From contig CAXXOA010000001.1 in NCBI GenBank assembly GCA_963666275.2, positions 416,001 to 480,000 of the forward strand: DNA of 64,000 nt, written 5' to 3'. The notes below the pieces were generated by a model. That model was not told the DNA's origin, did no database searches, and was given only the letters and a program-made list of their open reading frames with translations. Source of the stretch: Oceanispirochaeta sp. GTDB taxonomy: Bacteria > Spirochaetota > Spirochaetia > DSM-2461. Position 1 is the first letter of the stretch, and each line of letters begins with the position of its first letter. The position numbers were made by a program, and so were the translations under genes. Positions 19,292 through 32,365 of this stretch are shown in pieces.

Positions 19292-20233
19292 TTAATGAAA
19301 CAATTCCCCGATGCTGTCGCCTGTATGGATCCGTTTGATGGCCTCTGCTATCAGCGGGGCTGCTGAAATAATCTGCAGTCCCGGCAGCTCTTTTTCCGGG
19401 GGAACATCCACTGTGTTGGACACAAGAAGACCCTGAATATCCAGATTCTTAAGCCGCTGGATCGCAGGGCCGCAGAGAACCGGATGAACCGCTCCCACCA
19501 GGATATCCCGGACACCCGCTTTTTTAAGGGTTTCCACCGTTTTGAGAATGGTACCGCCTGTGGATATTTCATCATCGAAAATCAGAACATCCCGGCCTTC
19601 CACTTCGCCCACCACATGACCCTGCTGGACCTCTGTGTCGCTGATCCGTCTTTTATCGATAATCGCCAGGGACAGTCCCGCCAGTTCGGCAAAGTGGGCC
19701 GCCCTTTTGGCTCCCCCCGCGTCAGTGGCTACAGCCACCAGGTTTTCCGTATCGTAATGGCTCTTCACATAGTCCGCCAGAAGGGGAATCGCTGTGAGAT
19801 GATCCACAGGCATGCTGAAGAAGCCGTGTACCTGATCCGAATGGAGGTCCATGGTAAGAACCCTGTCGGCTCCTGATGTCTTGAGCAGATCCGCTATCAG
19901 TCTGGCTGTAATGGATATGCGGGGGGCGTCCTTTTTATCCGACCGGGCGTAGGAGTAGTAGGGGATCACAGCGGTGATTCTGCCGGCCGATGCGCTGCGC
20001 AGGGCATCCAGTGTGATCAGAAGGGTCACAAGATTATGGCTCACCGGCTCTGCCAGGGACTGAAAGACGAACACATCTTTTTCTCTGACACTCTCCAGGA
20101 TCTGAACCGAAAGGTTGTCATTGGAAAACCGGGATATTGCCAGGGGGCTCAGTTCCAGTCCCAGACGGGTACAGACCTGCTCCGCCAGGTCGGGATTGGA
20201 TCCGCAGCAGAAAATCTTCATGGCATTTTTCAT
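19292..20233 (-). CDS. prs: Ribose-phosphate pyrophosphokinase
   Basis: FSNDN...ESVR, YYSYARSDKK, DLHSDQVHGFF and DDEISTGGT motifs. Confidence 0.93.
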   Translation of the reverse strand: MKNAMKIFCCGSNPDLAEQVCTRLGLELSPLAISRFSNDNLSVQILESVREKDVFVFQSLAEPVSHNLVTLLITLDALRSASAGRITAVIPYYSYARSDKKDAPRISITARLIADLLKTSGADRVLTMDLHSDQVHGFFSMPVDHLTAIPLLADYVKSHYDTENLVAVATDAGGAKRAAHFAELAGLSLAIIDKRRISDTEVQQGHVVGEVEGRDVLIFDDEISTGGTILKTVETLKKAGVRDILVGAVHPVLCGPAIQRLKNLDIQGLLVSNTVDVPPEKELPGLQIISAAPLIAEAIKRIHTGDSIGELFH

Positions 20234-22062
20234 ACGTTTTTCCCCAGTACTTTCAGAGCCAGTTCCACTTTGCCGAAGGGGGCGCTGACCTGGAATCCCT
20301 GTACGTAGGTATCAATGGCTTCACAGATCTCCGTGGCAATCCTGAGTCCCTCGGCTATGCCCTCCTCCCGGGACTGGCAGCGGCTCATCCTTTCCATTAC
20401 CGAGTCGGGAACTTCCACTCCCGGGACTTCGTTCCGCATAAACTCGGCATTTTTAAAGCTCACAAGAGGCCACACCCCGGCGATGACAGGGATCTGGCCG
20501 AAGGAAGAGGCCTTCTCCAGGAAATTCAGGAGAGCCATGGGGTCGAAAACGGGCTGGGTGATGGCAAACTCGGCTCCCGCTTCGATCTTCCTTCTGTAGC
20601 GGTCCAGTTCCAGTTCAGGAGAGACCGCACAGGGATTGGCTCCCACTCCCGTAAAGATCGAAGTGGGGGGGGATATGGGGTTGCCCCCGAAGTCCCGGCC
20701 GTAGTTCATATTCCGGACCACCTGGGTGAGTCCGATGGCATCCACATCAAAGACTCCGGTCACCTCCGGGTAGTCTCCCGACTTGGGAGGATCTCCTGTG
20801 ATGACAAGGAAGTTCTTCAGCCCCGCCGCCACGCTTCCCAGTATATCCGACTGCATTCCCAGAAGGTTCCTGTCCCGGCAGGTGTAGTGAAGAACCGCTT
20901 CGATTCCCGCCTCTTTCTGTATCACCGAAGCGGCGATCATGGGGGAGACCCTGGCACTGGCCCGGGGGCCGTCGGGTATATTGATCGCATCCACGCCGTG
21001 GTAGGCGCAGGTTCTGGCTTTGGCAAGAAAGGCTGAAAGATCGGTGCTCCGGGGAGGGGTAATCTCAACGGATGTGACTTTCACTCCCTGCTTGATCAGG
21101 CAGGCCAGACGGGATTTGTCCTCCTGGGGGACAGGCTTGAAATCCTGGTCTTCCTGCAGGGCCGCTTTGACTTGGATATGCTTTTTGACAACACTGATGG
21201 CTTTGACAGCCCGGGAGGCATCCCGGATATGATCCGGTGTGGTTCCGCAGCATCCGCCTACCGCACGGACTCCCAGTTCCATGAATTTCTTGGCATACTT
21301 GGTAAAATAGTCCGGATTGGAAAGGTAGATCATCCTCCCGTCCAGTTCTTTGGGAAAACCCGCATTGGGCAGAACAATGACCGGTTTTTCCGTGAGCCCC
21401 ATGGCTTCTCTGACCCACTCATACAGATGGGAGGGGCCGGTGCCGCAGTTGAGGCCTATCATCTGAACCGCATCGCTCCTGTTGAGCTTGTCAATGACGA
21501 TCCTCAGACTCTCGCCTCCGGGGGTATAGCCCTCTTCGGTAAGGGTAAAGGAGGCGCACACAGGTTTGCCGCAGGAGGAAGCCGCCCGGGCGGCCACAAG
21601 AAGCTCTGCACTGTGACTGAAGGTTTCAAGAAGAAACATATCCACTCCGCCCTGATTCAAGGCATCCGCCTGTTCTCTGAACACATCAGAGAGTTCTTCT
21701 TTTCTGTCGGGCCTCAGGATCTGACCGGACTTGAGGCAGGGTCCCATGGAACCGGCCACATAGAGCTCCTCTTCCGCGTATTTCCTGGCCAGTCTGGCCG
21801 CCGCAAGATTGATCTCTCTGACCTTGTCCCCCAGACCGTGTTCGGCCAGTTTGATCCGGTTGGCACCAAAGGAGTTTGTTTCAAGAACATCCGCCCCGGC
21901 GTCTCTGTATTCCTGATGGATCTCTCCCACCAGGTCGGGGGAGGTCAGGTTCAGCTCATCGTAGCAGCGGTTCAGAAAAACGCCTTTGCTGTAGAGCATT
22001 GTTCCCATGGCACCGTCAAATACCAGGGGCTGTTCCTTGATTCTCTCGAGTATGGGCTTCAC
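20230..22062 (-). CDS. yitJ: Bifunctional homocysteine S-methyltransferase / 5,10-methylene-THF reductase (YitJ-like)
   Basis: N-terminal DGAMGT, GLNC and GGCCGT (Zn ligands). C-terminal MTHFR motifs VEITPP, INIPDGPRA, HYTCRDRN, ITGDP and ITQPVFD. Confidence 0.93.
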   Translation of the reverse strand: MKPILERIKEQPLVFDGAMGTMLYSKGVFLNRCYDELNLTSPDLVGEIHQEYRDAGADVLETNSFGANRIKLAEHGLGDKVREINLAAARLARKYAEEELYVAGSMGPCLKSGQILRPDRKEELSDVFREQADALNQGGVDMFLLETFSHSAELLVAARAASSCGKPVCASFTLTEEGYTPGGESLRIVIDKLNRSDAVQMIGLNCGTGPSHLYEWVREAMGLTEKPVIVLPNAGFPKELDGRMIYLSNPDYFTKYAKKFMELGVRAVGGCCGTTPDHIRDASRAVKAISVVKKHIQVKAALQEDQDFKPVPQEDKSRLACLIKQGVKVTSVEITPPRSTDLSAFLAKARTCAYHGVDAINIPDGPRASARVSPMIAASVIQKEAGIEAVLHYTCRDRNLLGMQSDILGSVAAGLKNFLVITGDPPKSGDYPEVTGVFDVDAIGLTQVVRNMNYGRDFGGNPISPPTSIFTGVGANPCAVSPELELDRYRRKIEAGAEFAITQPVFDPMALLNFLEKASSFGQIPVIAGVWPLVSFKNAEFMRNEVPGVEVPDSVMERMSRCQSREEGIAEGLRIATEICEAIDTYVQGFQVSAPFGKVELALKVLGKNV

Positions 22063-22120
22063 GACTTAAAAACTCCTTCTTCTGTGTTCTTTTTTAAAAT
22101 AGCGGACCTGCTGTTCTGAC

Positions 22121-22279
22121 TCAGTCCAGTGGGTCGAAATTGTCTTTTGTGGTGTAGCAAAGAGGGCAGACCCAGGTATCGGGAAGGTCCTCGAAAGCGG
22201 TCCCCGCAGGGATATCCCCCATGGGGTCTCCCTGGGCCGGATCATAGATGTATCCGCAGTTAATGCAAATATATTTCAT
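22121..22279 (-). CDS. Rubredoxin (52 aa)
   Basis: Not in the ORF track. Manual translation: [52 protein letters not shown]. It has two CxxC loops and SD GGAG upstream. Confidence 0.95.
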
Positions 22280-22295
22280 TCAGGCTCTCCTTTTT

Positions 22296-24746
22296 TTATA
22301 CGGCAAAGTACTTTGCCTGGGGATGATGCGCCACCAGAGCCGATGTGGACTGCTCGGGGACCATCTCATAGTTTTCCGTCAGGGTAATGCCGATCCTTTC
22401 GGGTTTCAGCATTTCAAAGACAGGACCGTGGGCTGATATATCCGGGCAGGAGGGGTAACCGAATCCGTACCGGGACCCCTGGTACTGCTGGGTTACATAG
22501 CCGTGTATGCTTTCCGGCTCTGACGAGGCAATGCCCATTTCCACCCGCATCCTCTTGTGCCAGTACTCCGCCAGGGCGTCTGTCACCTCCACGCTGAAGG
22601 CATGGAGCATCAGATAGTCGTGATAGGCATCCGCTTCATAGAGCTCGGCGGTCCGTTTGGAAACCTCGTCGCCGATGGTGACCACAAACAGTCCGGCCAC
22701 ATCCCCCCCCTCTTCGGCGCTCTTGTAATAGTCCGAAAGACAGAGGAAGGGAGCTTCTCCCTGCCGGGGAAAGGGGTAGTCATACTCCTTCCCGTTGTGC
22801 TGCATTACAAGGGTCTCCCCCCGGCTTTCGCAGGCGAAGTAGCCGTAGGCGGCGGCGGGTTTGATCAGTCCCTCATGGAGGAACTGCCGGCGGAACTCTT
22901 CGTACAGGGGTTCCACTTTGGTTTTGATCAGTTCGCTGTACTCTTCCCCGGTCATCTTGCCCCGTCTGTAGCCCCAGCGGCCCCGGAACAGGGCCTGTTT
23001 GTTGATCAGGGAGAGCACTTCCTCCAGGTCTATGTCGGTGACGATTCTGTCTCCCAGAAAAGGGGGATCGGGAACCGGATTATCCCGGAGGATTTCTGCA
23101 TCTCTTCGTCCCGGCTTGACTGTTTCTCCCGTACTTCTGGCTTCCCAGGTGGTGGCTGCCAGTTTTCCCGCTTCAAAATCCCGCACCTTTTTCAGAGCAT
23201 CAAAGGCATCGGAGTTATAGACTACAGGATGGGTGTAGCCGGGAACACAGCTTTCGGCCACAAACTTCTTTGTCAGGGCGGCTCCCCCCAGAAAGATGGG
23301 AACCTTCAATCCCGCTTCCTCGTACTGGCTCATGCTCTCTTTCATGACCATGGCGGATTTTACAAGCAGCCCGCTGAGGCCTATGATATCCACCTCTTTT
23401 TCCCGGGCCTGCTGGATGATGGTTTCCGCAGGGACTTTGATCCCAATATTGTAAACCTTGTAGCCGTTGTTGCTGAGGATAATATCCACAAGGTTTTTTC
23501 CTATGTCATGGACATCGCCCTGAACAGTAGCCAGGAGGATCTTTGTCTGGTTGCCTGATTCGGCCTTTTCCATAAGGGGTTCCAGGTAGCGGACCGAGGC
23601 TTTCATGGTTTCGGCCGACTGGAGAACGAAGGGCAGGAGGATCTCTCCCTTTCCGAAGAGCTCGCCCACATGCCGCATGGCCGGTATGAGCACATCGTTG
23701 ATTATGCCGATGGGGGTGTTCCTCTGAAGGAGCATATCCAGAATGTCTGTCAGATCATCCCGGTTTCCCGCTACGATCTTGTCGTACATCTGGGTTTCCA
23801 GGGGTTTCCATTTTGTGTCTTTTTCATCTTCGTCGCTGATTTTGGCATCGGAAAAGTGATCGATAAACAGCAGAAGGGGAGACTTATCTTCGTTTTTCAC
23901 CCTGTCATAGAGCAGATCCATACAGATCTCTCTGTCCTCCTCGCTGATCGAGGCCAGGGGGAGGATTTTGGCGGCGTCGATGATACAAGAGTCCAGTCCC
24001 GCCTCCAGGGCTTCATGGAGGAATACCGCATTGAGAATCCTACGGGAGGGGGCGGAAAGGCCGAAAGATATATTGCTCAGCCCCAGCATGGTCAGGCAGC
24101 CGGGGAGCTCTTTTTTGATAAGCCGGATGGCATCCATGGTTTGAACCGCCGCATCCCTCAGGTTTTCATCCCCCGCTCCGACCGTAAAGGTGAGGGGATC
24201 AAAAAGGATGTCATGGGGTCTGATACCGAACTCTCCGACCGCAATATCATAGATCCGGCGGGCCACTTCCAGCTTTTTCTCCGCCGTCATGGCCATCCCG
24301 TCTTCGTCTATGGTCAGGGCCACCACGGCGGCACCGTATTTTTTCACAACCTTCAGGACCCGGTAGATGTTCTTTCCCCCGTCCTCCAGGTTCACCGAGT
24401 TGACAATGCACCGGCCCGGATAGAGTTTCAAAGACTCCTCAATCACTTCCGGAGTGGTGGAATCAATCATTAAAGGGGTTTTCAGGGATCCCGCAAAGAG
24501 GGGGACCAGGGTGGTCATGTCCTTCATCTCGTCCCGGCCCGCATAGGCGGTACACAGGTCGATCACATGGGCTCCTGCGGCTTCCTGATCCCGGCCCATG
24601 GTCAGACAGCTGCCGTAGTCGTCGGCCAGGAGGAACTCCCTGAATTTTTTCGAACCGTTGGAGTTGCACCTTTCCCCGATGATTAGGGGCTTTATTTCCT
24701 GAACCAGTTCCACTGATTCATATAGGCTGGCTATGGAAGGTTTCAC
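22296..24746 (-). CDS. metH: Cobalamin-dependent methionine synthase, folate/cap/B12/AdoMet-reactivation part (split MetH)
   Basis: IGERCN, MIDST and VNSVNLEDG (pterin-binding); LPFVLQSA (cap); GDVHDIGKN and SGLL (B12); RYGFGYPSCP and PEQSTSA (reactivation). GTG start. Confidence 0.93.
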   Translation of the reverse strand: MKPSIASLYESVELVQEIKPLIIGERCNSNGSKKFREFLLADDYGSCLTMGRDQEAAGAHVIDLCTAYAGRDEMKDMTTLVPLFAGSLKTPLMIDSTTPEVIEESLKLYPGRCIVNSVNLEDGGKNIYRVLKVVKKYGAAVVALTIDEDGMAMTAEKKLEVARRIYDIAVGEFGIRPHDILFDPLTFTVGAGDENLRDAAVQTMDAIRLIKKELPGCLTMLGLSNISFGLSAPSRRILNAVFLHEALEAGLDSCIIDAAKILPLASISEEDREICMDLLYDRVKNEDKSPLLLFIDHFSDAKISDEDEKDTKWKPLETQMYDKIVAGNRDDLTDILDMLLQRNTPIGIINDVLIPAMRHVGELFGKGEILLPFVLQSAETMKASVRYLEPLMEKAESGNQTKILLATVQGDVHDIGKNLVDIILSNNGYKVYNIGIKVPAETIIQQAREKEVDIIGLSGLLVKSAMVMKESMSQYEEAGLKVPIFLGGAALTKKFVAESCVPGYTHPVVYNSDAFDALKKVRDFEAGKLAATTWEARSTGETVKPGRRDAEILRDNPVPDPPFLGDRIVTDIDLEEVLSLINKQALFRGRWGYRRGKMTGEEYSELIKTKVEPLYEEFRRQFLHEGLIKPAAAYGYFACESRGETLVMQHNGKEYDYPFPRQGEAPFLCLSDYYKSAEEGGDVAGLFVVTIGDEVSKRTAELYEADAYHDYLMLHAFSVEVTDALAEYWHKRMRVEMGIASSEPESIHGYVTQQYQGSRYGFGYPSCPDISAHGPVFEMLKPERIGITLTENYEMVPEQSTSALVAHHPQAKYFAV

Positions 24747-25666
24747 TGCTGCACCTCCCTCTGGGCCGGTTCAATTCCCGAAACAGCCTCTTTCAGCGCT
24801 CTAATATGATCCGGAGTGGAGCCGCAGCATCCCCCCACCAGGGAAACGCCCCATTTTTCCACAAAGGTTTTCATTTCTCCCGCAAAGTGTTCGGGGGTCA
24901 TGGGATAGCAGGTCTTCCCGTCTATGATTTCGGGCAGTCCCTGATTGGGAAGGCAGGAAACCCTTCCGCTCCAGTTATGGCTGAGCCAGTGTATGGAGGA
25001 CTGCATATCCTCCGGCCCGGTGGCGCAGTTCAGGCCGAAAGCGAAGACCGGAAAGGGCTCTATGATGGCAGCAGCCGCAGCTATATCCGAGCCGGCCAGC
25101 ATGGTGCCAGTTTTTTCTATGGTTACCGAGATGATCAGGGGGAGCTCTTTTCCCAGTTCCTCCATCACTTCTCCAGCGGCTATGAGAGATGTTTTGAGCT
25201 GCAGTACATCCTGGGCTGTTTCAAGCATCAGCAGGTCTACTCCCGCATTGATGAGGGCGCGGACCTGATCCTTGTAGGCTCTGTTGACTTCATCCACAGT
25301 GATGTGCCCCAGCGAGGGGAGTTTTGTCCCGGGACCGCAGGAGCCGGCGACCCAGCCGTGTCCGGAGAGTTCCACTGCCCTGCGGGCCGCTTCCACACCG
25401 GCCCGGTTGATCTCTTCCACTCTGTCCTCCAGTCCGTATTCGCTGAGAACAATAGAAGAGGCTCCGAAGGTATTGGTTTCGATGATATCGGCTCCCGCAT
25501 CAAGGAACTCCCTGTGCATCTCTGTTATCTTTTCAGGACAACTGATATTCAGGTATTCGTTGCACCCCTCGTTGCCGTCCCACACAGATTCAGGAAGGTC
25601 CATGTTCTGTATGCTTGTTCCGCAGGCTCCATCAAGGATTAACAGCTTTTTCTCTTGTAAATCCAT
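24743..25666 (-). CDS. metH: Homocysteine-binding (S-methyltransferase) module of split MetH
   Basis: LDGACGT, ETNTFG, GPGTKLP, GLNCATGP, PNQGLP and GGCCGS motifs. Its stop overlaps the next GTG (GTGA). ATG 25666 follows SD GGAG (the ORF opens at 25678). Confidence 0.92.
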   Translation of the reverse strand: MDLQEKKLLILDGACGTSIQNMDLPESVWDGNEGCNEYLNISCPEKITEMHREFLDAGADIIETNTFGASSIVLSEYGLEDRVEEINRAGVEAARRAVELSGHGWVAGSCGPGTKLPSLGHITVDEVNRAYKDQVRALINAGVDLLMLETAQDVLQLKTSLIAAGEVMEELGKELPLIISVTIEKTGTMLAGSDIAAAAAIIEPFPVFAFGLNCATGPEDMQSSIHWLSHNWSGRVSCLPNQGLPEIIDGKTCYPMTPEHFAGEMKTFVEKWGVSLVGGCCGSTPDHIRALKEAVSGIEPAQREVQQ

Positions 25667-25735
25667 TCTTTCTCCCATTTTTTCTCTGTTTTGTCCTATA
25701 CAGGCTTTCCGACCGGTCCGTCGAAATTGTCACCT

Positions 25736-25764
25736 AGTATAGACACTTTGCATAGGAAAGTCTA
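25736..25764 (-). promoter_or_regulatory. Sigma-70 promoter of the met operon
   Basis: TAGACT-17 bp-TATACT on the minus strand. Confidence 0.6.
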
Positions 25765-25845
25765 AGCCCCCGGAGCCGGGCTTGTCCATTTCTCCCGGAT
25801 CTTTCAGAAGCCGACGGGTTCTGTTTGTGCCCGGGAGGAAAACTC

Positions 25846-25874
25846 TTGACTTTTTGTCCATGTCACCCTACTTT
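25846..25874 (+). promoter_or_regulatory. Sigma-70 promoter of the ECF-coaX operon
   Basis: TTGACT-17 bp-TACTTT. The predicted TSS near 25880 is immediately at the hairpin. Confidence 0.65.
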
Positions 25875-25879
25875 TTAAT

Positions 25880-25921
25880 CACCAGTACGCCTGGATCTGT
25901 TAAAGACCGGGACGTGAGGTG
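25880..25921 (+). ncRNA. Cis-regulatory hairpin with two bulged A residues, pan RNA motif-like (copy 1)
   Basis: CACC-AGT-ACG-CCUGG-A-UCU-GUUAA-AGA-CCGGG-A-CGU-GA-GGUG, located in the 5' UTR of pantothenate/CoA genes. Confidence 0.7.
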
Positions 25922-25927
25922 TAAACA

Positions 25928-26002
25928 ATGAAAAAGAAAACTGAATATATATCTCATTATCAGTCCCAGCCCCCTTCAGGGAGGGTCTATGGACAGCTCT
26001 GA
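25928..26002 (+). CDS. Putative 24-aa leader peptide (uORF) overlapping the ecfA start
   Basis: SD GAGGTG, then 6 nt, then ATG: MKKKTEYISHYQSQPPSGRVYGQL*. The SD lies in the 3' arm of the hairpin. Confidence 0.4.
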   Translation: MKKKTEYISHYQSQPPSGRVYGQL

Positions 26003-27725
26003 ATCCTTTGTCCGGTTTAAACGGGTGGGATTCTCCTATCCCGGAAATCCGGATGAGACCCTTAAAGAGGTAAACTTCTCTATTGCCAGAGGAAGCAGAA
26101 CCCTTATCCTGGGGAGTAACGGTTCCGGGAAAAGTACCCTTGTCCGGCTCATCACGGGGCTTCTGACTCCCCGGGCCGGTGAGGTCCTGACCTCCGGGCT
26201 GAATACAGCGGCAGAAGAGAACCGCAGAACCATCCGGGAAAGGGCGGGGCTGCTGTTTCAGAATCCCTCCTCCCAGATCGTTGCCACTGTGGTCCGGGAA
26301 GACGCGGCTTTCGGTCCCGAAAACCTGGGACTGGCCAGTCAGGAGATCCGGGAGAGGGTCCGGAACGCTCTGGAGAGAACAGGTCTTTCCCCCCTCTCCC
26401 GCAGAGCCACCCATGATCTTTCGGCGGGGCAGCAGCAGAGACTCTCTCTGGCCGGGGTCCTGGCGCTGGGTTCGGGCTGTCTTATCCTGGACGAAGCGGC
26501 TTCCATGCTGAATCCCTCGGCCCGCAGAGATATGGATCTGCTTCTGGATGACCTTTACAGCCGGGGATACACGATCATTCAGGTCTCCCATTTTATGGAA
26601 CAGATCCTGGAAGCCGACCATATCCTGATCCTCAACAGGGGCGAACTGGTCTTCGACGGTAATAAAGAGGAGCTTCTGGAACAGGCGGATCATCTTGCCG
26701 GATGGTCGCTGAAACTGCCGGAAGTGGTCACCCTGTCCAGGAGCCTTCAGCTCCCCCTCTGTCTGGATGAACAGACCCTTAGCTCTCGTATAAAAGAGAA
26801 ATTTCCTGAAAACCCGGGTTCCGGGAATAGTCCTTTCAGCGGATATGAATCTTCCGCCCCGGACCATGAGGCTCCCCTCCTTGTTCTCAATAGAGTGAAC
26901 TTTGATTATAACAGCCGCAGACCGAATCCTGTTCCCGCTGTGAGAAATCTGGATTTTTCCTTTTTCCGGGGGGAAACGGCCGTGTTTATGGGGACTACAG
27001 GCTCGGGAAAGTCTACGATCCTTCAGATTCTGAACTCCCTGCTTCTGCCTCAGGAGGGACGTGTCTCCCTGCTGGGTGAGAATCCTCTGGACAGGAAATG
27101 CGATCTTACAGGGCTGCGCCGCCGGATAGGACTGGTTATGCAGCAGCCTGAAAAACAGCTTTTTGCCCCCCTGACGGGGGATGATATCGCCTATGGACCC
27201 AAACTGCAGGGGTTGAAGGGCAGGGAATTGGCTCTCCGGGTGAAAGAAGCCATGGAGCTTATGGAACTTTCCTATAAAACCTTCCGGGACAAACCTGTGA
27301 GGGCTTTGAGCGGGGGGCAGAAGCGCAAGGTCGCCCTGGCGGGCATTCTGGCAATGAAACCGGAAATCCTCCTTCTGGATGAACCCACCGCCGGACTGGA
27401 TCCGCTCTCCCGGGATCATCTGGAAAGGCTTATGCTCAGCCTCAGGGAAGAGGGGATCAGTCTGATCTTTTCAACCCATGACGTGGAGCAGGCCGTCCGC
27501 CTGGGATCCCGCCTTATCGTTATGGATCAGGGGGAGAAAGCCTTCGACGGAAATCCTCTGGATTTTTTTCTCCGCCATGATCCGGCCCTCTACGGCCTGG
27601 AATCTCCTCTGGCTTTCAGAATCTGGCAGAATGCGGGAAAAGGGGGCCGGGTTCCTCTCCTGCCGGAAGAGCTGGTTACCCGGCTGCAGGCGGAAATCCC
27701 CGCAGGGAAGGGGAGTGGCCTATGA
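25989..27725 (+). CDS. ECF transporter ATPase, fused EcfA1-EcfA2
   Basis: Two ABC domains (GSNGSGKST/LSAGQQQR and GTTGSGKST/LSGGQKRK) with ECF-type FQNP..Q and QQPEKQLF Q-helices. Confidence 0.92.
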   Translation: MDSSESFVRFKRVGFSYPGNPDETLKEVNFSIARGSRTLILGSNGSGKSTLVRLITGLLTPRAGEVLTSGLNTAAEENRRTIRERAGLLFQNPSSQIVATVVREDAAFGPENLGLASQEIRERVRNALERTGLSPLSRRATHDLSAGQQQRLSLAGVLALGSGCLILDEAASMLNPSARRDMDLLLDDLYSRGYTIIQVSHFMEQILEADHILILNRGELVFDGNKEELLEQADHLAGWSLKLPEVVTLSRSLQLPLCLDEQTLSSRIKEKFPENPGSGNSPFSGYESSAPDHEAPLLVLNRVNFDYNSRRPNPVPAVRNLDFSFFRGETAVFMGTTGSGKSTILQILNSLLLPQEGRVSLLGENPLDRKCDLTGLRRRIGLVMQQPEKQLFAPLTGDDIAYGPKLQGLKGRELALRVKEAMELMELSYKTFRDKPVRALSGGQKRKVALAGILAMKPEILLLDEPTAGLDPLSRDHLERLMLSLREEGISLIFSTHDVEQAVRLGSRLIVMDQGEKAFDGNPLDFFLRHDPALYGLESPLAFRIWQNAGKGGRVPLLPEELVTRLQAEIPAGKGSGL

Positions 27726-28591
27726 GAAACTTTGATTTTTCAGGGACCATGGCCCTGGGGCAGTATGAACCGGGAGACTCGTACCTTCACAGACTGGTTC
27801 CGGGGGTCAAACTCCTTTCGGCGTTTCTCCTTGTCAGCGTGGTTCTCTTCTCTCCGCTGTACCCTGTACTGCCCCTTCTTTTCCTTTTCTTTGCGGTTCT
27901 TGCCCGGGCGGCGGATCTTAAAATCCGGTATCTTATGAAAGGAGTGAAACCTGTCCTCCCTTTCCTGATTCTCATCGGCATCATTCAGGTCTTTTTTATC
28001 TCCCGGGATCCTCTGGGGGAGCCGCTGTTTGTCTACCGGTTTCTCAGGATCTATCCTGTGGATCTGTATGAAACGGCTCAGCTTTTTGCCCGGTTTTTCT
28101 GCCTGGTCCTTCTGCTGTCCCTGTTTAATGCGGTAACGCCTCTGACCGAGATCAGTCACGGTACCGAGTTCCTTCTCCGCCCTCTGGGAAAGAAATCCGG
28201 GGCGGCCCACGACATGTCTCTGATCGTGACCATTACCTTCCGTTTCATTCCCATCCTGGCCCAGGAGGCGGAAAGCATTACCAAAGCCCAGGCGGCCAGA
28301 GGAGGAGAGTTCGGAACCTGGAAAACTGGATTTCTGAGAAAGGTCAGGCTCTATGTGCCCCTGATCGTGCCGCTTTTTATTGCCGCCCTGGACAGGGCGG
28401 AGATTCTTGTGGAGGCCATGGAGTCCCGCTGCTACACACCGGGGCGCCACAGGACCAGGCTGGACGAGTATCACTGGCAGAGACGGGATACCCTGGCTAT
28501 TACCGGAGTGGGAGGACTCTTTCTCATCCTTCTGTTACTGCGTCTGTTTCAGTTCCCTTTACCCGGGCTGTCCCCTTTCTTTTTGCAATAG
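27722..28591 (+). CDS. ecfT: ECF transporter transmembrane component T
   Basis: LGQYEPGDSYLHRL, RFIP, AQAARG and AMESRCY motifs. Confidence 0.92.
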   Translation: MRNFDFSGTMALGQYEPGDSYLHRLVPGVKLLSAFLLVSVVLFSPLYPVLPLLFLFFAVLARAADLKIRYLMKGVKPVLPFLILIGIIQVFFISRDPLGEPLFVYRFLRIYPVDLYETAQLFARFFCLVLLLSLFNAVTPLTEISHGTEFLLRPLGKKSGAAHDMSLIVTITFRFIPILAQEAESITKAQAARGGEFGTWKTGFLRKVRLYVPLIVPLFIAALDRAEILVEAMESRCYTPGRHRTRLDEYHWQRRDTLAITGVGGLFLILLLLRLFQFPLPGLSPFFLQ

Positions 28592-28664
28592 CCAGGGAGA
28601 GGGATCATATTTTAGGTTGTATAAGGTGTTTTTCCCCGGGAGAATCCCCTTTTGAATAATGGTA

Positions 28665-28692
28665 ACCCCTGGATCCGGAAGGACCGGGAGGT
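28665..28692 (+). ncRNA. Cis-regulatory hairpin with two bulged A residues, pan RNA motif-like (copy 2)
   Basis: ACC-CCUGG-A-UCC-GGAA-GGA-CCGGG-A-GGU, immediately before the SD AAGGAG of the S component. It shows compensatory base-pair changes relative to copy 1. Confidence 0.68.
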
Positions 28693-28706
28693 GAAAGGAG
28701 TTGTGT

Positions 28707-29282
28707 ATGAGTGATTCAAGCCGTACAAAAAAAATTGTTATAGCCGGAGTTATGGCGGCTATATCTGTCGTCCTGGGTGCCACCAGACTGGGGTTTATCC
28801 CCTGGCTGTCCGGTGCCTCTCTGACTGTCATGCATGTGCCAGTTATTATCGGCGCCATCCTGGAGGGTCCCGTGGTCGGTATGGTCATAGGATTTATCTT
28901 CGGCCTCTTCAGTCTGATCCAGGCCGCCGTGTCGCCCACCGGACCGGTGGATGTGTTCTTTACCAATCCTCTGGTATCGATCCTTCCCAGGATCCTGATC
29001 GGCGCCACAACATGGCTTGTCTATGGTGCTTTCCGTGACAGATGGCTCCCCGTGGCTGTGATCCTTTCCTCCGTGGTGGGAAGCCTGACAAACACTGTGC
29101 TTGTTCTGGGCGCTCTGGGCGTGGCGGGAGCTCTCCCCTGGCAGCTTGTGGGAACAATCACTGTTATCAACGGCCTTCCCGAAGCAGGGGCGGCTGCCCT
29201 GATTTCCATTGCGGTGATCACCTCATGGAAGTCCATCAGTCTGAACCGAAAATCCAAACTTGACGATCTGGAAGAGAAATAA
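28707..29282 (+). CDS. ECF transporter S component, PanT-like (predicted pantothenate)
   Basis: LGFIP...TVMHVPVIIGAILEGP..G, SILPRILIG, GSLTNTVLVL and NGLPEA motifs. Translationally coupled to coaX. Confidence 0.85.
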   Translation: MSDSSRTKKIVIAGVMAAISVVLGATRLGFIPWLSGASLTVMHVPVIIGAILEGPVVGMVIGFIFGLFSLIQAAVSPTGPVDVFFTNPLVSILPRILIGATTWLVYGAFRDRWLPVAVILSSVVGSLTNTVLVLGALGVAGALPWQLVGTITVINGLPEAGAAALISIAVITSWKSISLNRKSKLDDLEEK

Positions 29283-30064
29283 TGCTGCTGGCTGTAGATA
29301 TAGGAAACACGAATATTGTGCTGGGTATCCATAACGGGGAAACCTGGCTTAACCATTGGAGAATCTGTACGGATCCCGCCAAAATGCCCGATGAATACGG
29401 GGTTCTTGTGCGGGATCTTCTCAGGGAAGAGGGCATCCACCGCCGGGAAGTTTCCCAGTCCGTGATAAGCAGCGTGGTGCCCGGCCTGACCGCCAAAATC
29501 CGGGATATGATTGAAAAACTGTTTTCTTTCACCCCTCTTATCGTGGGGCCCGGGGTCAAAACAGGGCTGAAGATCCTGATTGAAAATCCTGCCGAGCTGG
29601 GAACGGACATTGTGTGCAATGCCGTGGCCGCCTACAACAGAATACAGGGGAATCTGATTGTTGTGGACTTCGGTACGGCCCTGACCTTCACAGCCGTGAG
29701 AGAACCCGGAGAGATCCTGGGGGTTTCCATTGCTCCGGGCCTTCAGGCCGCAGCGGAAGCCCTGTCGGAGCATACGGCTCAGCTGCCTCAGGTCTGGCTG
29801 GAACCTCCGCAGAATGCCATCGGGAAGAATACGATCAAATCGGTTCAGTCGGGAGTTGTCTTCGGCTACACCGGCCTTGTGGAATCCCTGATCGACAGGA
29901 TGAAAAAAGAGCTGGGCGGGGATGTTTCGGTTATCGGTACTGGCGGCCGCTCCGGGGTCATCGCCCCCTTAACAGACCGGTTTACCATGATAGAACCCTG
30001 GCTGATCCTGGAAGGTCTGCGCCTGATCGGCACAAGAAACAGGAAATTTTTTCAGGAACAATAA
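29282..30064 (+). CDS. coaX: Type III pantothenate kinase
   Basis: MLLAVDIGNTN, SSVVP, LGTD, VVDFGTALT, IAPG and IGTGG motifs. Confidence 0.95.
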   Translation: MLLAVDIGNTNIVLGIHNGETWLNHWRICTDPAKMPDEYGVLVRDLLREEGIHRREVSQSVISSVVPGLTAKIRDMIEKLFSFTPLIVGPGVKTGLKILIENPAELGTDIVCNAVAAYNRIQGNLIVVDFGTALTFTAVREPGEILGVSIAPGLQAAAEALSEHTAQLPQVWLEPPQNAIGKNTIKSVQSGVVFGYTGLVESLIDRMKKELGGDVSVIGTGGRSGVIAPLTDRFTMIEPWLILEGLRLIGTRNRKFFQEQ

Positions 30065-30127
30065 TTTTTTTTCCCGGTGTTTTATACCATACTTTACTAA
30101 AGCAGATACTGTTTTAAAGGAGTTTAT

Positions 30128-30376
30128 ATGGAATATCAGATCGTAGCGATAAAGATCGGACACCGGGAAGACAAGGCCACGGCGGTGCAGGATGTGCTGA
30201 CAAAATTCGGATGCAATATCAAAGTCCGCCTGGGCCTTCATGATCTGCCCGAAGGAGCCTGTTCTCCCTCGGGCCTGATTCTCCTTCAGGTTTCGGCAGA
30301 GGAGAAAGAGCTGAAGGTCTTTCTGGATCAGCTGAACAGCATGGAAGAAGTGACGGCCCGGTCTCTGACTATCTGA
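30128..30376 (+). CDS. Small ACT/NikR-C-like protein (TM1266, putative iron-only hydrogenase regulator family)
   Basis: 82 aa with the R...A..VQ.VLT.FGC.IK.RLGLH motif and SD AAGGAG. Confidence 0.75.
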   Translation: MEYQIVAIKIGHREDKATAVQDVLTKFGCNIKVRLGLHDLPEGACSPSGLILLQVSAEEKELKVFLDQLNSMEEVTARSLTI

Positions 30377-30415
30377 GTTTTAAAAACTCGCATTATAGCT
30401 GTGAATCTTCAGATC

Positions 30416-30440
30416 AGCCCCTCATTCTGTGGGGCTTTTT
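30416..30440 (+). terminator. Rho-independent terminator
   Basis: AGCCCC...GGGGCT stem followed by a T-run. Confidence 0.65.
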
Positions 30441-30525
30441 CAGCAGGAAAGTTTCATTCGGCTGCTTCTACATAAACAAACGGCATATTATGGGGAAACA
30501 GCAGGTCGAAGATCAATCGGCCAAT

Positions 30526-32268
30526 CTATGGCTTCACCGCCAGGAAATCGGGGGAACCCTTGGCTTCTTTTTTCAACGCCATAATCTGCCGGGTAAAGTC
30601 TTCCAGAGAGTCTGCTGCGGTATGGGACAGGTCTATCAGGGCGGCGCTCACTGTCAGAAGGGGGAAGTTCCTGAGCTTTCCGTTTCTGTCTTTTCCCCTG
30701 ATACAGCCCCGGTCTCGATCCTCCTCGCTGTAGTAGGAGGACACATTCCTAGTGAACTTATCCTGAATGGTTCTGATTTTTTCCAGTATCTCCTCTCTTT
30801 CCCTGTTATTCTGAAAAATCACTATGAAATCATCTCCCCCTATATGACCGATAAAGTCTTTAGAAAGGGATAACTCTTTTTTGAGTATTTCCGTAAAAAG
30901 GACAATCACCCTGTCTCCCAGGCGGAAACCGTACATATCGTTATAGGGTTTGAAATTGTTGAAATCGAAATACACAACCGTGCAGGGAGAACTATCGCTC
31001 TCTTTCAGGATCCTGGTCAGTTTGCGGTTGATGGCAAAATTCCCCGGCAGCCTGGTCAGCGGGTTCTGATCCCGGGCTTTGGCCACCTCTTTTTCATTGA
31101 TCAGGTCGATCAGACGGGAGGGTTCCAGAATCCCGAGATACCTGCCCTGCCTGGTGATGATAATCCCCGGAGATTCAGGCATAGTGGCTGCTGTTTTCAT
31201 AAAGGATTCCAGGCTTTTATGCTCTTCCGACACGGGGATACGGGAAAGAAACGACTCCAGACCTTTGGAGTGGCTTTTATTCCGGAAAAGTGAAATCCCG
31301 TAGGGGGAGTAAACGTAGTTTTTCAGATCCTTCTGCCGGATACAGCCCAGGGGCTGTTCCAGATGATCCACAACAGGAATCAGCGAGATGTCCTCGTTTT
31401 TGAAGCGTTCCAGAATCTGTTCACAATCCGTGAAGAGAGTAATGGGGGCAATCCGGGTCAGTTTTCTATCCAGAATGGACGCAGCCCTTTCTCCCTCTCT
31501 CCTGCCGTATGCACTGTTTTCCCTATCCAGATTGTAGCTGTCCAGGAGCCGGGTAAGATCCGTTTCAGGCCTGGCAATGTAATACCCCTGGAGAAAGTCG
31601 CATCCTATAAGACGGCAGAAATTCAGTTCCTCCCGGGTTTCGATCCCTTCTGCAACCACTTTTATACCCATCAGATGGGCCATATTGACTATATTCTCTG
31701 CAAAAAGCTTCTTCTTGGGATCATCCTGAATCCCCTCGATAAAGAAGCGGTCAATTTTGACAATATCCGGATTGGAGTGATAGAGGAGCTGCAGCCCCGA
31801 ATATCCCGAGCCGTAATCGTCAATGGCAATTCTGAAGTTCTGATCCTTGTAATCTTTGAGGATTTCACTGGCATTGCTGTAGGGGTTGAACTCATGTCGC
31901 TCTGATATTTCAAAAAACAGACTGGATTTCTTGATCCCCAGCTCCCTGAGCAGTTCATCCGTATTGCCCGGATGGTAGTCGGGCATTTCCAGAACCCGGT
32001 TGTCCAGATTGTAGAACAGGCACTTGTTTTCCATCCCCCTTGTGGACTGGAATTTGCTGATGGCCTTCCTTCTCAGTTCCAGATCCAGAGCATAGAGCGC
32101 CTTGTCACTGAACGCTTCATCCAGAAGAGAAAAAATACTCTCAAAGCCGCAATGCCTATAGTTCCTCAGTAGGGCTTCATACCCGAACACATCTCCCGTG
32201 AAGCTGTTGACTATGGGCTGAAACGCATAATCCAGCCGGGCGGCCCTGTCCTTCCAGTTTTTTGTCAT
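30526..32268 (-). CDS. EAL-CBS-GGDEF c-di-GMP turnover protein
   Basis: FQPIV, YEALLR, EISE, IDDYGSGYS, KIDR and EGIE (EAL); a CBS-like middle; NPLTRLPGN and GHIGGDDF (GGDEF). ATG 32268 is preferred (the ORF opens at 32310). Confidence 0.92.
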   Translation of the reverse strand: MTKNWKDRAARLDYAFQPIVNSFTGDVFGYEALLRNYRHCGFESIFSLLDEAFSDKALYALDLELRRKAISKFQSTRGMENKCLFYNLDNRVLEMPDYHPGNTDELLRELGIKKSSLFFEISERHEFNPYSNASEILKDYKDQNFRIAIDDYGSGYSGLQLLYHSNPDIVKIDRFFIEGIQDDPKKKLFAENIVNMAHLMGIKVVAEGIETREELNFCRLIGCDFLQGYYIARPETDLTRLLDSYNLDRENSAYGRREGERAASILDRKLTRIAPITLFTDCEQILERFKNEDISLIPVVDHLEQPLGCIRQKDLKNYVYSPYGISLFRNKSHSKGLESFLSRIPVSEEHKSLESFMKTAATMPESPGIIITRQGRYLGILEPSRLIDLINEKEVAKARDQNPLTRLPGNFAINRKLTRILKESDSSPCTVVYFDFNNFKPYNDMYGFRLGDRVIVLFTEILKKELSLSKDFIGHIGGDDFIVIFQNNREREEILEKIRTIQDKFTRNVSSYYSEEDRDRGCIRGKDRNGKLRNFPLLTVSAALIDLSHTAADSLEDFTRQIMALKKEAKGSPDFLAVKP

Positions 32269-32365
32269 ACTTAATTTTTCCGTTTGGAATATATTTTCTA
32301 AAACAAGCATCAGCAGTCTACATCCACAATCAATGAGTTTTTCATTATTCTTTATCTTCCCCTCG

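Follow-up and report, generated by a model that had tools for sequence, protein, structure and literature searches.

The closest described system to the one reported here is the pan RNA motif (Rfam family RF01749), which the sections consulted of its original description (PMC2864571) present as a stem with two bulged adenosines five base pairs apart, followed by a Shine-Dalgarno sequence (SD) and genes for pantothenate (vitamin B5) and coenzyme A (CoA). Its discoverers read the tandem form as the site for a dimeric protein, and the part of the published alignment that was available holds three rows with single hairpins. No ligand or binding protein for pan was found in the literature searched since its description in 2010, which took in few subscription papers and lacked two supplements of the original paper. 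The DNA analysed here (the window) is a stretch of 64,000 nucleotides of Oceanispirochaeta sp. (assembly GCA_963666275.2, contig CAXXOA010000001.1, positions 416,001–480,000), from a genome of 5.27 Mb that is 97% complete (G000). The window contains an operon for an energy-coupling factor (ECF) transporter, with a PanT-like substrate-binding (S) component and CoaX, and two hairpins in this operon share the core and the bulged adenosines of pan. Both are almost certainly pan-type RNAs of a single-hairpin form, which places a known RNA family in a new context, that is, in a spirochete and 5′ of ECF-panT-coaX.

The hairpins lie on the forward strand at 25887–25915 (copy 1) and 28665–28692 (copy 2), and their sequence and coordinates agree with those in an earlier note on this DNA. 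In an Rfam scan of the surrounding 5-kb region they were the top two matches, both to RF01749, with 32.8 bits (E = 0.0069) for copy 1 and 21.0 bits (E = 3.3) for copy 2. The RF01749 model covers two hairpins, whereas the window sites are single hairpins. Neither score reaches the gathering score of 36.2 bits, and a scan of the window at this cut-off gave 0 matches. The covariance-model comparison proposed in the earlier note thus came out in part: RF01749 is the best Rfam family at both sites, though below its cut-off. A descriptor derived from both hairpins and applied to both strands of the genome returned three matches, of which only copies 1 and 2 have all flanking pairs intact; the third is a weaker site on contig C3, and the core alone matches 171 times in the whole genome. 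Copy 1 folds as drawn (z = −3.15, 0 of 200 shuffles), as does copy 2 (z = −2.42, 6 of 200 shuffles), and no alternative fold was predicted for either. Copy 2 differs from copy 1 by two double changes, both of which keep pairing. The sequence from 25600 to 30500 is identical in two contig sets from one sample; these may be the source data, so they are not independent.

The operon is present in 15 relatives (10 congeners, four members of a sister genus and one member of another family), and copy 1 is kept in all of them (13 by the strict descriptor, two by alignment), which bears out the conservation at orthologous loci that the earlier note had called for. A pan match was obtained in 10 of 10 congeners, and the orthologue of copy 1 in G059 scores 39.9 bits, above the RF01749 cut-off. 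The two bulged adenosines are invariant in 18 of 18 aligned hairpins. In this alignment 99.5% of the cells are paired and two-sided changes occur in 5 of the 11 pairs; 0 of 500 shuffles scored as high, a figure that is not a probability, given that the sequences are related and the structure was derived from the same set. The invariant core includes a U-G pair besides the two bulged adenosines, and the loop sequence is free. The two-sided changes support the selection on RNA structure that had been proposed from the two copies. The hairpins were also considered as DNA operators; this reading was rejected because both the conserved U-G pair and the two-sided changes are in keeping with pairing in RNA.

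Copy 2 is intact in none of the 15 relatives; G004 holds a decayed stem at the same place. No second long copy of the intergenic stretch with copy 2 was found in the genome. Because of the absence of an intact copy 2 in the relatives, the split of two hairpins between cistrons, suggested earlier as a design of the system, does not stand as a conserved one and is, judging from these alignments, a local state and a quirk of the lineage. An Rfam scan of 151 Spirochaetota genomes, of low sensitivity and with 26 candidates per genome, gave four matches at E ≤ 0.1 including that of G000; the other three are 5′ of ecfA homologues. The other loci with a pan leader 5′ of ecfA are those of spirochetes. 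One genome (G027) has a second single pan hairpin, 5′ of another ecfA-like gene (L142, G027:C527).

All genes of the operon are on the forward strand. The first encodes a fused EcfA-EcfA′ ATPase of 578 residues (25989–27725; TIGR04520 and TIGR04521, both over cut-off), followed by ecfT (27722–28591, 289 residues; PF02361), the PanT-like ECF S component (28707–29282, 191 residues; PF12822) and coaX1 (29282–30064), which belongs to the family of type III pantothenate kinases. The only PDB matches of the S component are 4RFS and 6ZG3, both PanT structures according to the parts seen of PMC7755397. CoaX1 scores 222.7 bits with PF03309 and 281 with NF009855 (cut-off 233). The family hidden Markov models and PDB matches agree with the ECF, PanT and CoaX identities given earlier, and what defines an ECF-PanT system (an S component closest to PanT, EcfT and EcfA/A′) is present.

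The leader of copy 1 starts with a sigma70-type promoter, TTGACT-17-TACTTT (25846–25874, forward strand), with a predicted start near 25881. It falls below the 9-of-12 cut of the promoter scan and so is not listed there; a TTGA hexamer is found at the same distance 5′ of the hairpin in 15 relatives. The promoter scan listed none 5′ of copy 2. By this prediction the mRNA has copy 1 as its 5′ end, and the base of the hairpin runs into the SD GAGGTG (25916–25921). In the minimum free energy structure of the 5′ leader (25881–25920) an ACC sequence is able to pair with the GGU in the SD, which would extend the hairpin over the SD; the leader sequence ACCAGT is kept in genus g1 and in G027. This SD serves the ATG at 25928 of a 24-codon upstream open reading frame (uORF; 25916–26002 including the SD) and not the ecfA ATG at 25989. 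Copy 2 ends 3 nucleotides before the SD AGGAG (28696–28700) of panT. The placement of the hairpins at two ribosome-binding sites in the earlier note is thus right insofar as both lie on initiation regions and copy 2 adjoins the panT SD; copy 1, however, adjoins the SD of the uORF, not that of ecfA.

The stop of the uORF is 14 nucleotides beyond the first base of ecfA. Such a uORF, of 21–26 codons, is present in 11 of 16 leader loci (nine in one frame and two in the other), one of the 16 (G023) having been read by eye from the alignment; in the remaining five this ATG is itself the start of ecfA. No conservation of the peptide was seen (median nucleotide identity of 52%). In none of the 11 uORF loci does the uORF frame meet a stop before the start of ecfA; of the two remaining frames, one is interrupted in all 11 and the other in 6. 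A stem is predicted over the SD of ecfA itself (25965–25988), which is predicted to be paired in all 11 uORF loci, with a probability of being unpaired of 0.00–0.30. By analogy with a described leader (see below), it is fairly likely that translation of ecfA is coupled through the uORF.

A third pan site was found outside the window. It is a tandem pan RNA at 1611378–1611464 of contig C1 of G000, 5′ of coaX2 and pdxS, with a score of 21.6 bits (21.6–29.1 bits in the five loci scanned); the tandem is present in 11 of 11 orthologous loci. CoaX2 itself scores 261 bits. No hairpin was found in the 150 nucleotides 5′ of three further coaX paralogues. The coaX2-pdxS module spans 1611378–1613195 of C1 (L163:1412–3229), and the open reading frame (ORF) that follows is presumably PdxT-like. 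Vitamin B6 synthesis would thus appear to be under pan control, for no obvious reason. CoaX2 carries DAGSA in place of the usual DxGNT.

Pan leaders in other bacteria were collected with a tighter pattern scan, which yielded 116 loci; the first ORF was scanned in 79 of these and 37 were omitted (36 with short flanks, one without an ORF). A looser scan gave 119 stretches, mostly from unrelated taxa, which were set aside. In 71 of the 79 loci, from several phyla, the same hairpin pattern lies 5′ of a vitamin B5/CoA gene: panB (35), panC (20), DUF2520 (8), panE (1), an ECF ATPase (5), a BioY-like S component (1) or DUF997 (1). Hence panB, panC, DUF2520 or panE follow the hairpin in 64 of the 79. 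The panB/panC/panD context of the motif is missing in G000. The pan sites of the window are a variant of the known motif, with its structure and covariation, at scores below the cut-off, as single hairpins and away from panB, panC and panD. Uptake genes led by pan outside the spirochetes include BioY-like and PanT-like S components with coaX (L225); further pan sites lie 5′ of DUF997 with a symporter-like ORF (L236) and 5′ of a lone PanT-like gene (L422).

The distribution of pan was compared with that of coaX, which was found in 45 of 49 pan-bearing metagenome-assembled genomes. Among 150 Bacilli, 116 have coaX, and pan was detected in 96 of these; among the 34 without coaX it was detected in none. 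Of the latter, 21 keep panB and 13 are without both coaX and panB. A rescan 5′ of panB again gave 0 of 21, and recovered weak pan sites in 13 of 20 coaX-containing genomes that were missed at first. The 21 genomes fall into two separate clades; the tested member of one has a type II kinase and that of the other a type I kinase. In a second class pan was present in 23 of 35 genomes with coaX versus 0 of 2 without, and in 19 of these 23 coaX follows pan at a distance of no more than 5 kb. The numbers for a phylum-level sample, which overlaps the two class samples by about twelve genomes, were 64 of 138 versus 1 of 12; both these comparisons were made at any panB status. Pan thus tracks coaX, with one exception in the phylum sample, which is in favour of CoaX as a binder, one of the candidates put forward earlier. 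In a phylogenetic tree CoaX1 groups with CoaX of pan-bearing phyla, apart from the native spirochete CoaX, and within this family credible pan sites were seen only in genera with CoaX1. Positions 34 and 252 of CoaX1 (Lys34 and Arg252) hold basic residues in this protein and in most CoaX of pan-bearing genomes, and never in the native spirochete CoaX or in CoaX2, a pattern that may reflect shared ancestry only. Five Bacilli (L381, L384, L388, L377 and L385) have coaX and panB and no pan 5′ of panB by either method.

Two other candidates were discarded. PanB, PanC and PanD are ruled out as binder because none was found in G000, which nevertheless keeps three pan loci. A CPF_0552-family small protein is encoded downstream of the operon (30128–30376, forward strand; NF052672, 98 bits) and had been named earlier as a possible binder. 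The locus extends far enough to judge in 12 relatives, and in 2 of these a member of this family is near the operon; none was found in five of five distant pan-bearing genomes, in G059 or in Bacillus subtilis. It was therefore rejected as a general pan binder and is probably outside the system. The protein is distantly TM1266-like, and its position is mobile among congeners.

The genome of G000 yielded no panB, panC or panD and no type I or type II pantothenate kinase, in line with the absence of panBCD from the window as first reported; there are weak PanE-like and symporter matches, and CoaD is present. The coaB gene was not found in G000, G006, G008 and G019, and the coaB search gave only weak flavoprotein matches in G000, G002, G009 and G059. 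Overall, searches of nine operon-bearing genomes (at least 94% complete) found no true coaB or coaBC in seven, and succeeded in 14 of 14 controls. The two operon-bearing genomes with coaB (G003 and G004) have it beside an extra coaX of the Arg type, and coaB likewise adjoins the gene in each of five other family members whose CoaX is of this type. The arginine in question belongs to the PAN motif (hGhDR), where it contacts pantothenate (PMC8721197, as far as the text was accessible). The corresponding sequence is GTDI in CoaX1 and GADL in CoaX2: the residue is Ile in 13 of 13 CoaX1 and Leu in 11 of 11 CoaX2 proteins, and Arg is kept in 46 of 46 other CoaX. In G238, a pan-bearing spirochete of another lineage, it is Leu as well. 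As CoaBC was not found, phosphopantothenate would be a dead end, and this together with the loss of the PAN arginine from both kinases suggests that the pathway is one of pantetheine salvage with pantetheine as the substrate of CoaX, to which we give somewhat better than even chances. The pantothenate salvage first assumed for this operon is not supported by these data.

Some further features of these kinases were observed. The tyrosine of the usual YENP is Ile in CoaX1. A third, Arg-type coaX occurs in G003 (L426), G004 (L427) and G014 (L203), in the first two 3′ of coaB, and the ORF that follows it in G003 is one we take to be PanD-like. The third coaX with coaB looks like a separate pantothenate cassette, present only in some congeners.

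We propose that the hairpins are single-hairpin pan RNAs that serve as protein-binding translational operators, a reading that in its entirety we consider about as probable as its negation. Its parts differ in strength. Repression by a protein at the SD is probable, and CoaX itself as the binder is a tentative assignment to which we give slightly less than even odds. The bound protein would clamp the stem and keep the 30S subunit off the SD. The blocked start in G000 would be that of the 24-codon uORF; ribosomes that read the uORF would open the SD of ecfA and restart there, and a block of the uORF would shut off the transporter genes by translational coupling. Copy 2 would act as a second operator, for panT-coaX1, in this lineage only, and the tandem site would put coaX2-pdxS under the same control. 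CoaX of the Bacillota type would repress when loaded with substrate or product, thereby providing feedback for an enzyme class without allosteric inhibition by CoA. The controlled pathway would be pantetheine salvage, composed of ECF uptake, CoaX with an altered PAN motif, and CoaD. More speculatively, CoaX of the Bacillota type could be a ligand-gated RNA-binding repressor of pan in Bacillota, Desulfobacterota and Nitrospinota as well as in some spirochetes. The spirochete clade described here might then have acquired the ECF transporter, an adapted CoaX and the RNA jointly, as a module for pantetheine salvage, the RNA being added later at coaX2-pdxS and panT.

A number of observations weigh against this proposal. 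Apart from the scores of both copies below the gathering score, the probability that the ecfA SD is unpaired places the 11 uORF loci no more narrowly than in the lowest 32% of a background of 600 genes, and the stem over this SD in G000 is no more stable than shuffles (z = −0.24). CoaE was not located in G000 by three motif scans of the 97% complete genome. With respect to CoaX, we know of no RNA-binding domain in this protein, and the tree is a quick one with long branches at the join. The remaining 4 of the 49 pan-bearing genomes gave no coaX, and one coaX-negative genome (G476) has a 45-bit pan match and yielded no kinase of type I, II or III; this exception may be an assembly gap. In the opposite direction, 74 of the 138 coaX-containing genomes of the phylum sample and 6 of 7 coaX-containing controls are without a pan match. 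With pan so much rarer than CoaX, CoaX can be no more than a necessary condition for pan. Finally, the link with CoaX is built on two independent losses plus the 13 genomes without coaX and panB, and any gene lost along with coaX would fit it.

The same operator could also be read by another protein, be it some regulator not yet known or one of the universal CoA enzymes (CoaD, for example). The association of pan with CoaX would then reflect need: RNA-level control would be kept where the kinase lacks feedback by CoA. Type III kinases are indeed described as lacking feedback inhibition in the available part of PMC12570885, and the small number of losses, the pan site of G476 and the unchanged RNA consensus in a clade with a changed CoaX active site would all be accommodated. 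Need alone does not predict the loss of pan, however, because a type II kinase, likewise described there as free of feedback, serves the low-GC clade that has no pan; moreover, B. subtilis, one of the controls, keeps pan despite also having a type I kinase, and PanB, PanC, PanD and the 30128 family have been eliminated as candidates for a general binder. We regard another binder as possible and rather less likely than not. The hairpin could also act as a riboswitch of minimal size, hiding the SD upon direct binding of CoA, pantetheine, phosphopantetheine or a related compound, as its strict link to vitamin B5/CoA genes, its position on the SD and its invariant core with the U-G pair and two bulged adenosines might suggest. 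A 28-nucleotide stem with a free loop sequence and no predicted alternative fold makes this improbable, as does the mostly tandem arrangement of pan, taken by its discoverers as a dimeric protein site (PMC2864571, in the sections consulted); a riboswitch would have no reason to vanish where coaX is replaced and panB stays.

The operator function of copy 2 and the substrate of the operon have alternatives of their own. Copy 2 could be a chance or decaying structure without function, with copy 1 doing all of the regulation; its absence in intact form from the relatives, its weak score and the fact that copy 1 already covers the operon agree with this. Yet copy 2 is the sole other perfect descriptor match in 5.27 Mb, lies in the same operon directly 5′ of an SD and keeps its pairs through two double changes; in addition, a related decayed stem occupies its place in G004, and G476 has a pan site directly 5′ of a PanT-like gene. 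A lack of function is thus unlikely. The operon could likewise import and phosphorylate pantothenate, with coaBC unassembled in a draft genome or too divergent to be recognized. The S component is closest to PanT structures, and the characterised type III kinases accept only pantothenate and reject pantetheine (PMC11487621 and PMC8721197, in the parts at hand), which also counts against pantetheine as the CoaX substrate. Against this stand the repeated absence of coaB/coaBC from operon-bearing genomes, set beside its presence in every control, and the extra Arg-type coaX next to coaB in both genomes that have it; we consider pantothenate salvage doubtful here and retain pantetheine salvage as the more probable pathway under control.

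The operon is flanked by other genes on the reverse strand. An EAL-CBS-GGDEF protein (30526–32310) converges on it, and a divergent cluster at 20230–25678 contains a methionine synthase split into separate ORFs, namely an S-methyltransferase domain (24743–25678) and an 816-residue ORF (22296–24746), together with a 610-residue methyltransferase/reductase-like ORF.

The main value of the work lies in two testable leads, CoaX as the reader of pan and CoaX of a pantetheine type. If neither holds, the result is of an ordinary kind, a known motif extended to one more phylum and another set of neighbouring genes. Compared with most pan members the host is a spirochete, ECF-panT-coaX and coaX2-pdxS are led instead of panB, panC or panD, and the hairpins of the window are single rather than tandem, score below the cut-off of a tandem model and are proposed to act through a uORF. 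The auxotroph removes PanB, PanC and PanD from consideration, and the nested distribution names CoaX as a testable partner for an RNA without one in the literature searched. For the uORF the nearest parallel is the repression by CsrA of Escherichia coli iraD (PMC5574718, seen in part), where a protein site also lies on the SD of a short uORF whose stop overlaps the main start and where the main SD is in a stem; the RNA site and the protein are unrelated, and the mechanism was shown by experiment for iraD and is inferred for copy 1. A regulatory role of CoaX has a precedent in the pseudokinase of Mycobacterium tuberculosis (PMC11626117, in the portion available), a pantothenate sensor which regulates pantothenate genes and whose deletion raises the transcripts of these genes by an unknown mechanism. 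That protein acts on PanB depupylation by protein contact, the same portion reports no RNA binding, and neither CoaX1 nor CoaX2 carries the Gly-to-Arg substitution at position 8 that inactivates the M. tuberculosis protein; deletion of coaX in B. subtilis is viable (PMC11487621, as excerpted).

Pantetheine salvage has been raised before, for Mycoplasma and for gut auxotrophs (PMC8721197 and PMC6593275, both as partly accessible). A pantetheine-using type III kinase, if real, would overturn the pantothenate-only rule of the class, and the operon would supply a transporter for many pantetheine auxotrophs without a known one, the transporters of such auxotrophs being mostly unknown in the available account of the proposed pantetheine shunt (PMC6593275). 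The type III pantothenate kinase of Mycoplasma (PMC8721197, same portion) has the PAN arginine replaced by Leu or Ile in genomes where coaBC is missing, and pantetheine use was proposed there and was not assayable. Unlike Mycoplasma, the organisms described here are spirochetes with large genomes and an ECF-PanT transporter in the same operon, and they offer an internal contrast between Arg-type CoaX with coaB and Ile/Leu-type CoaX without it.

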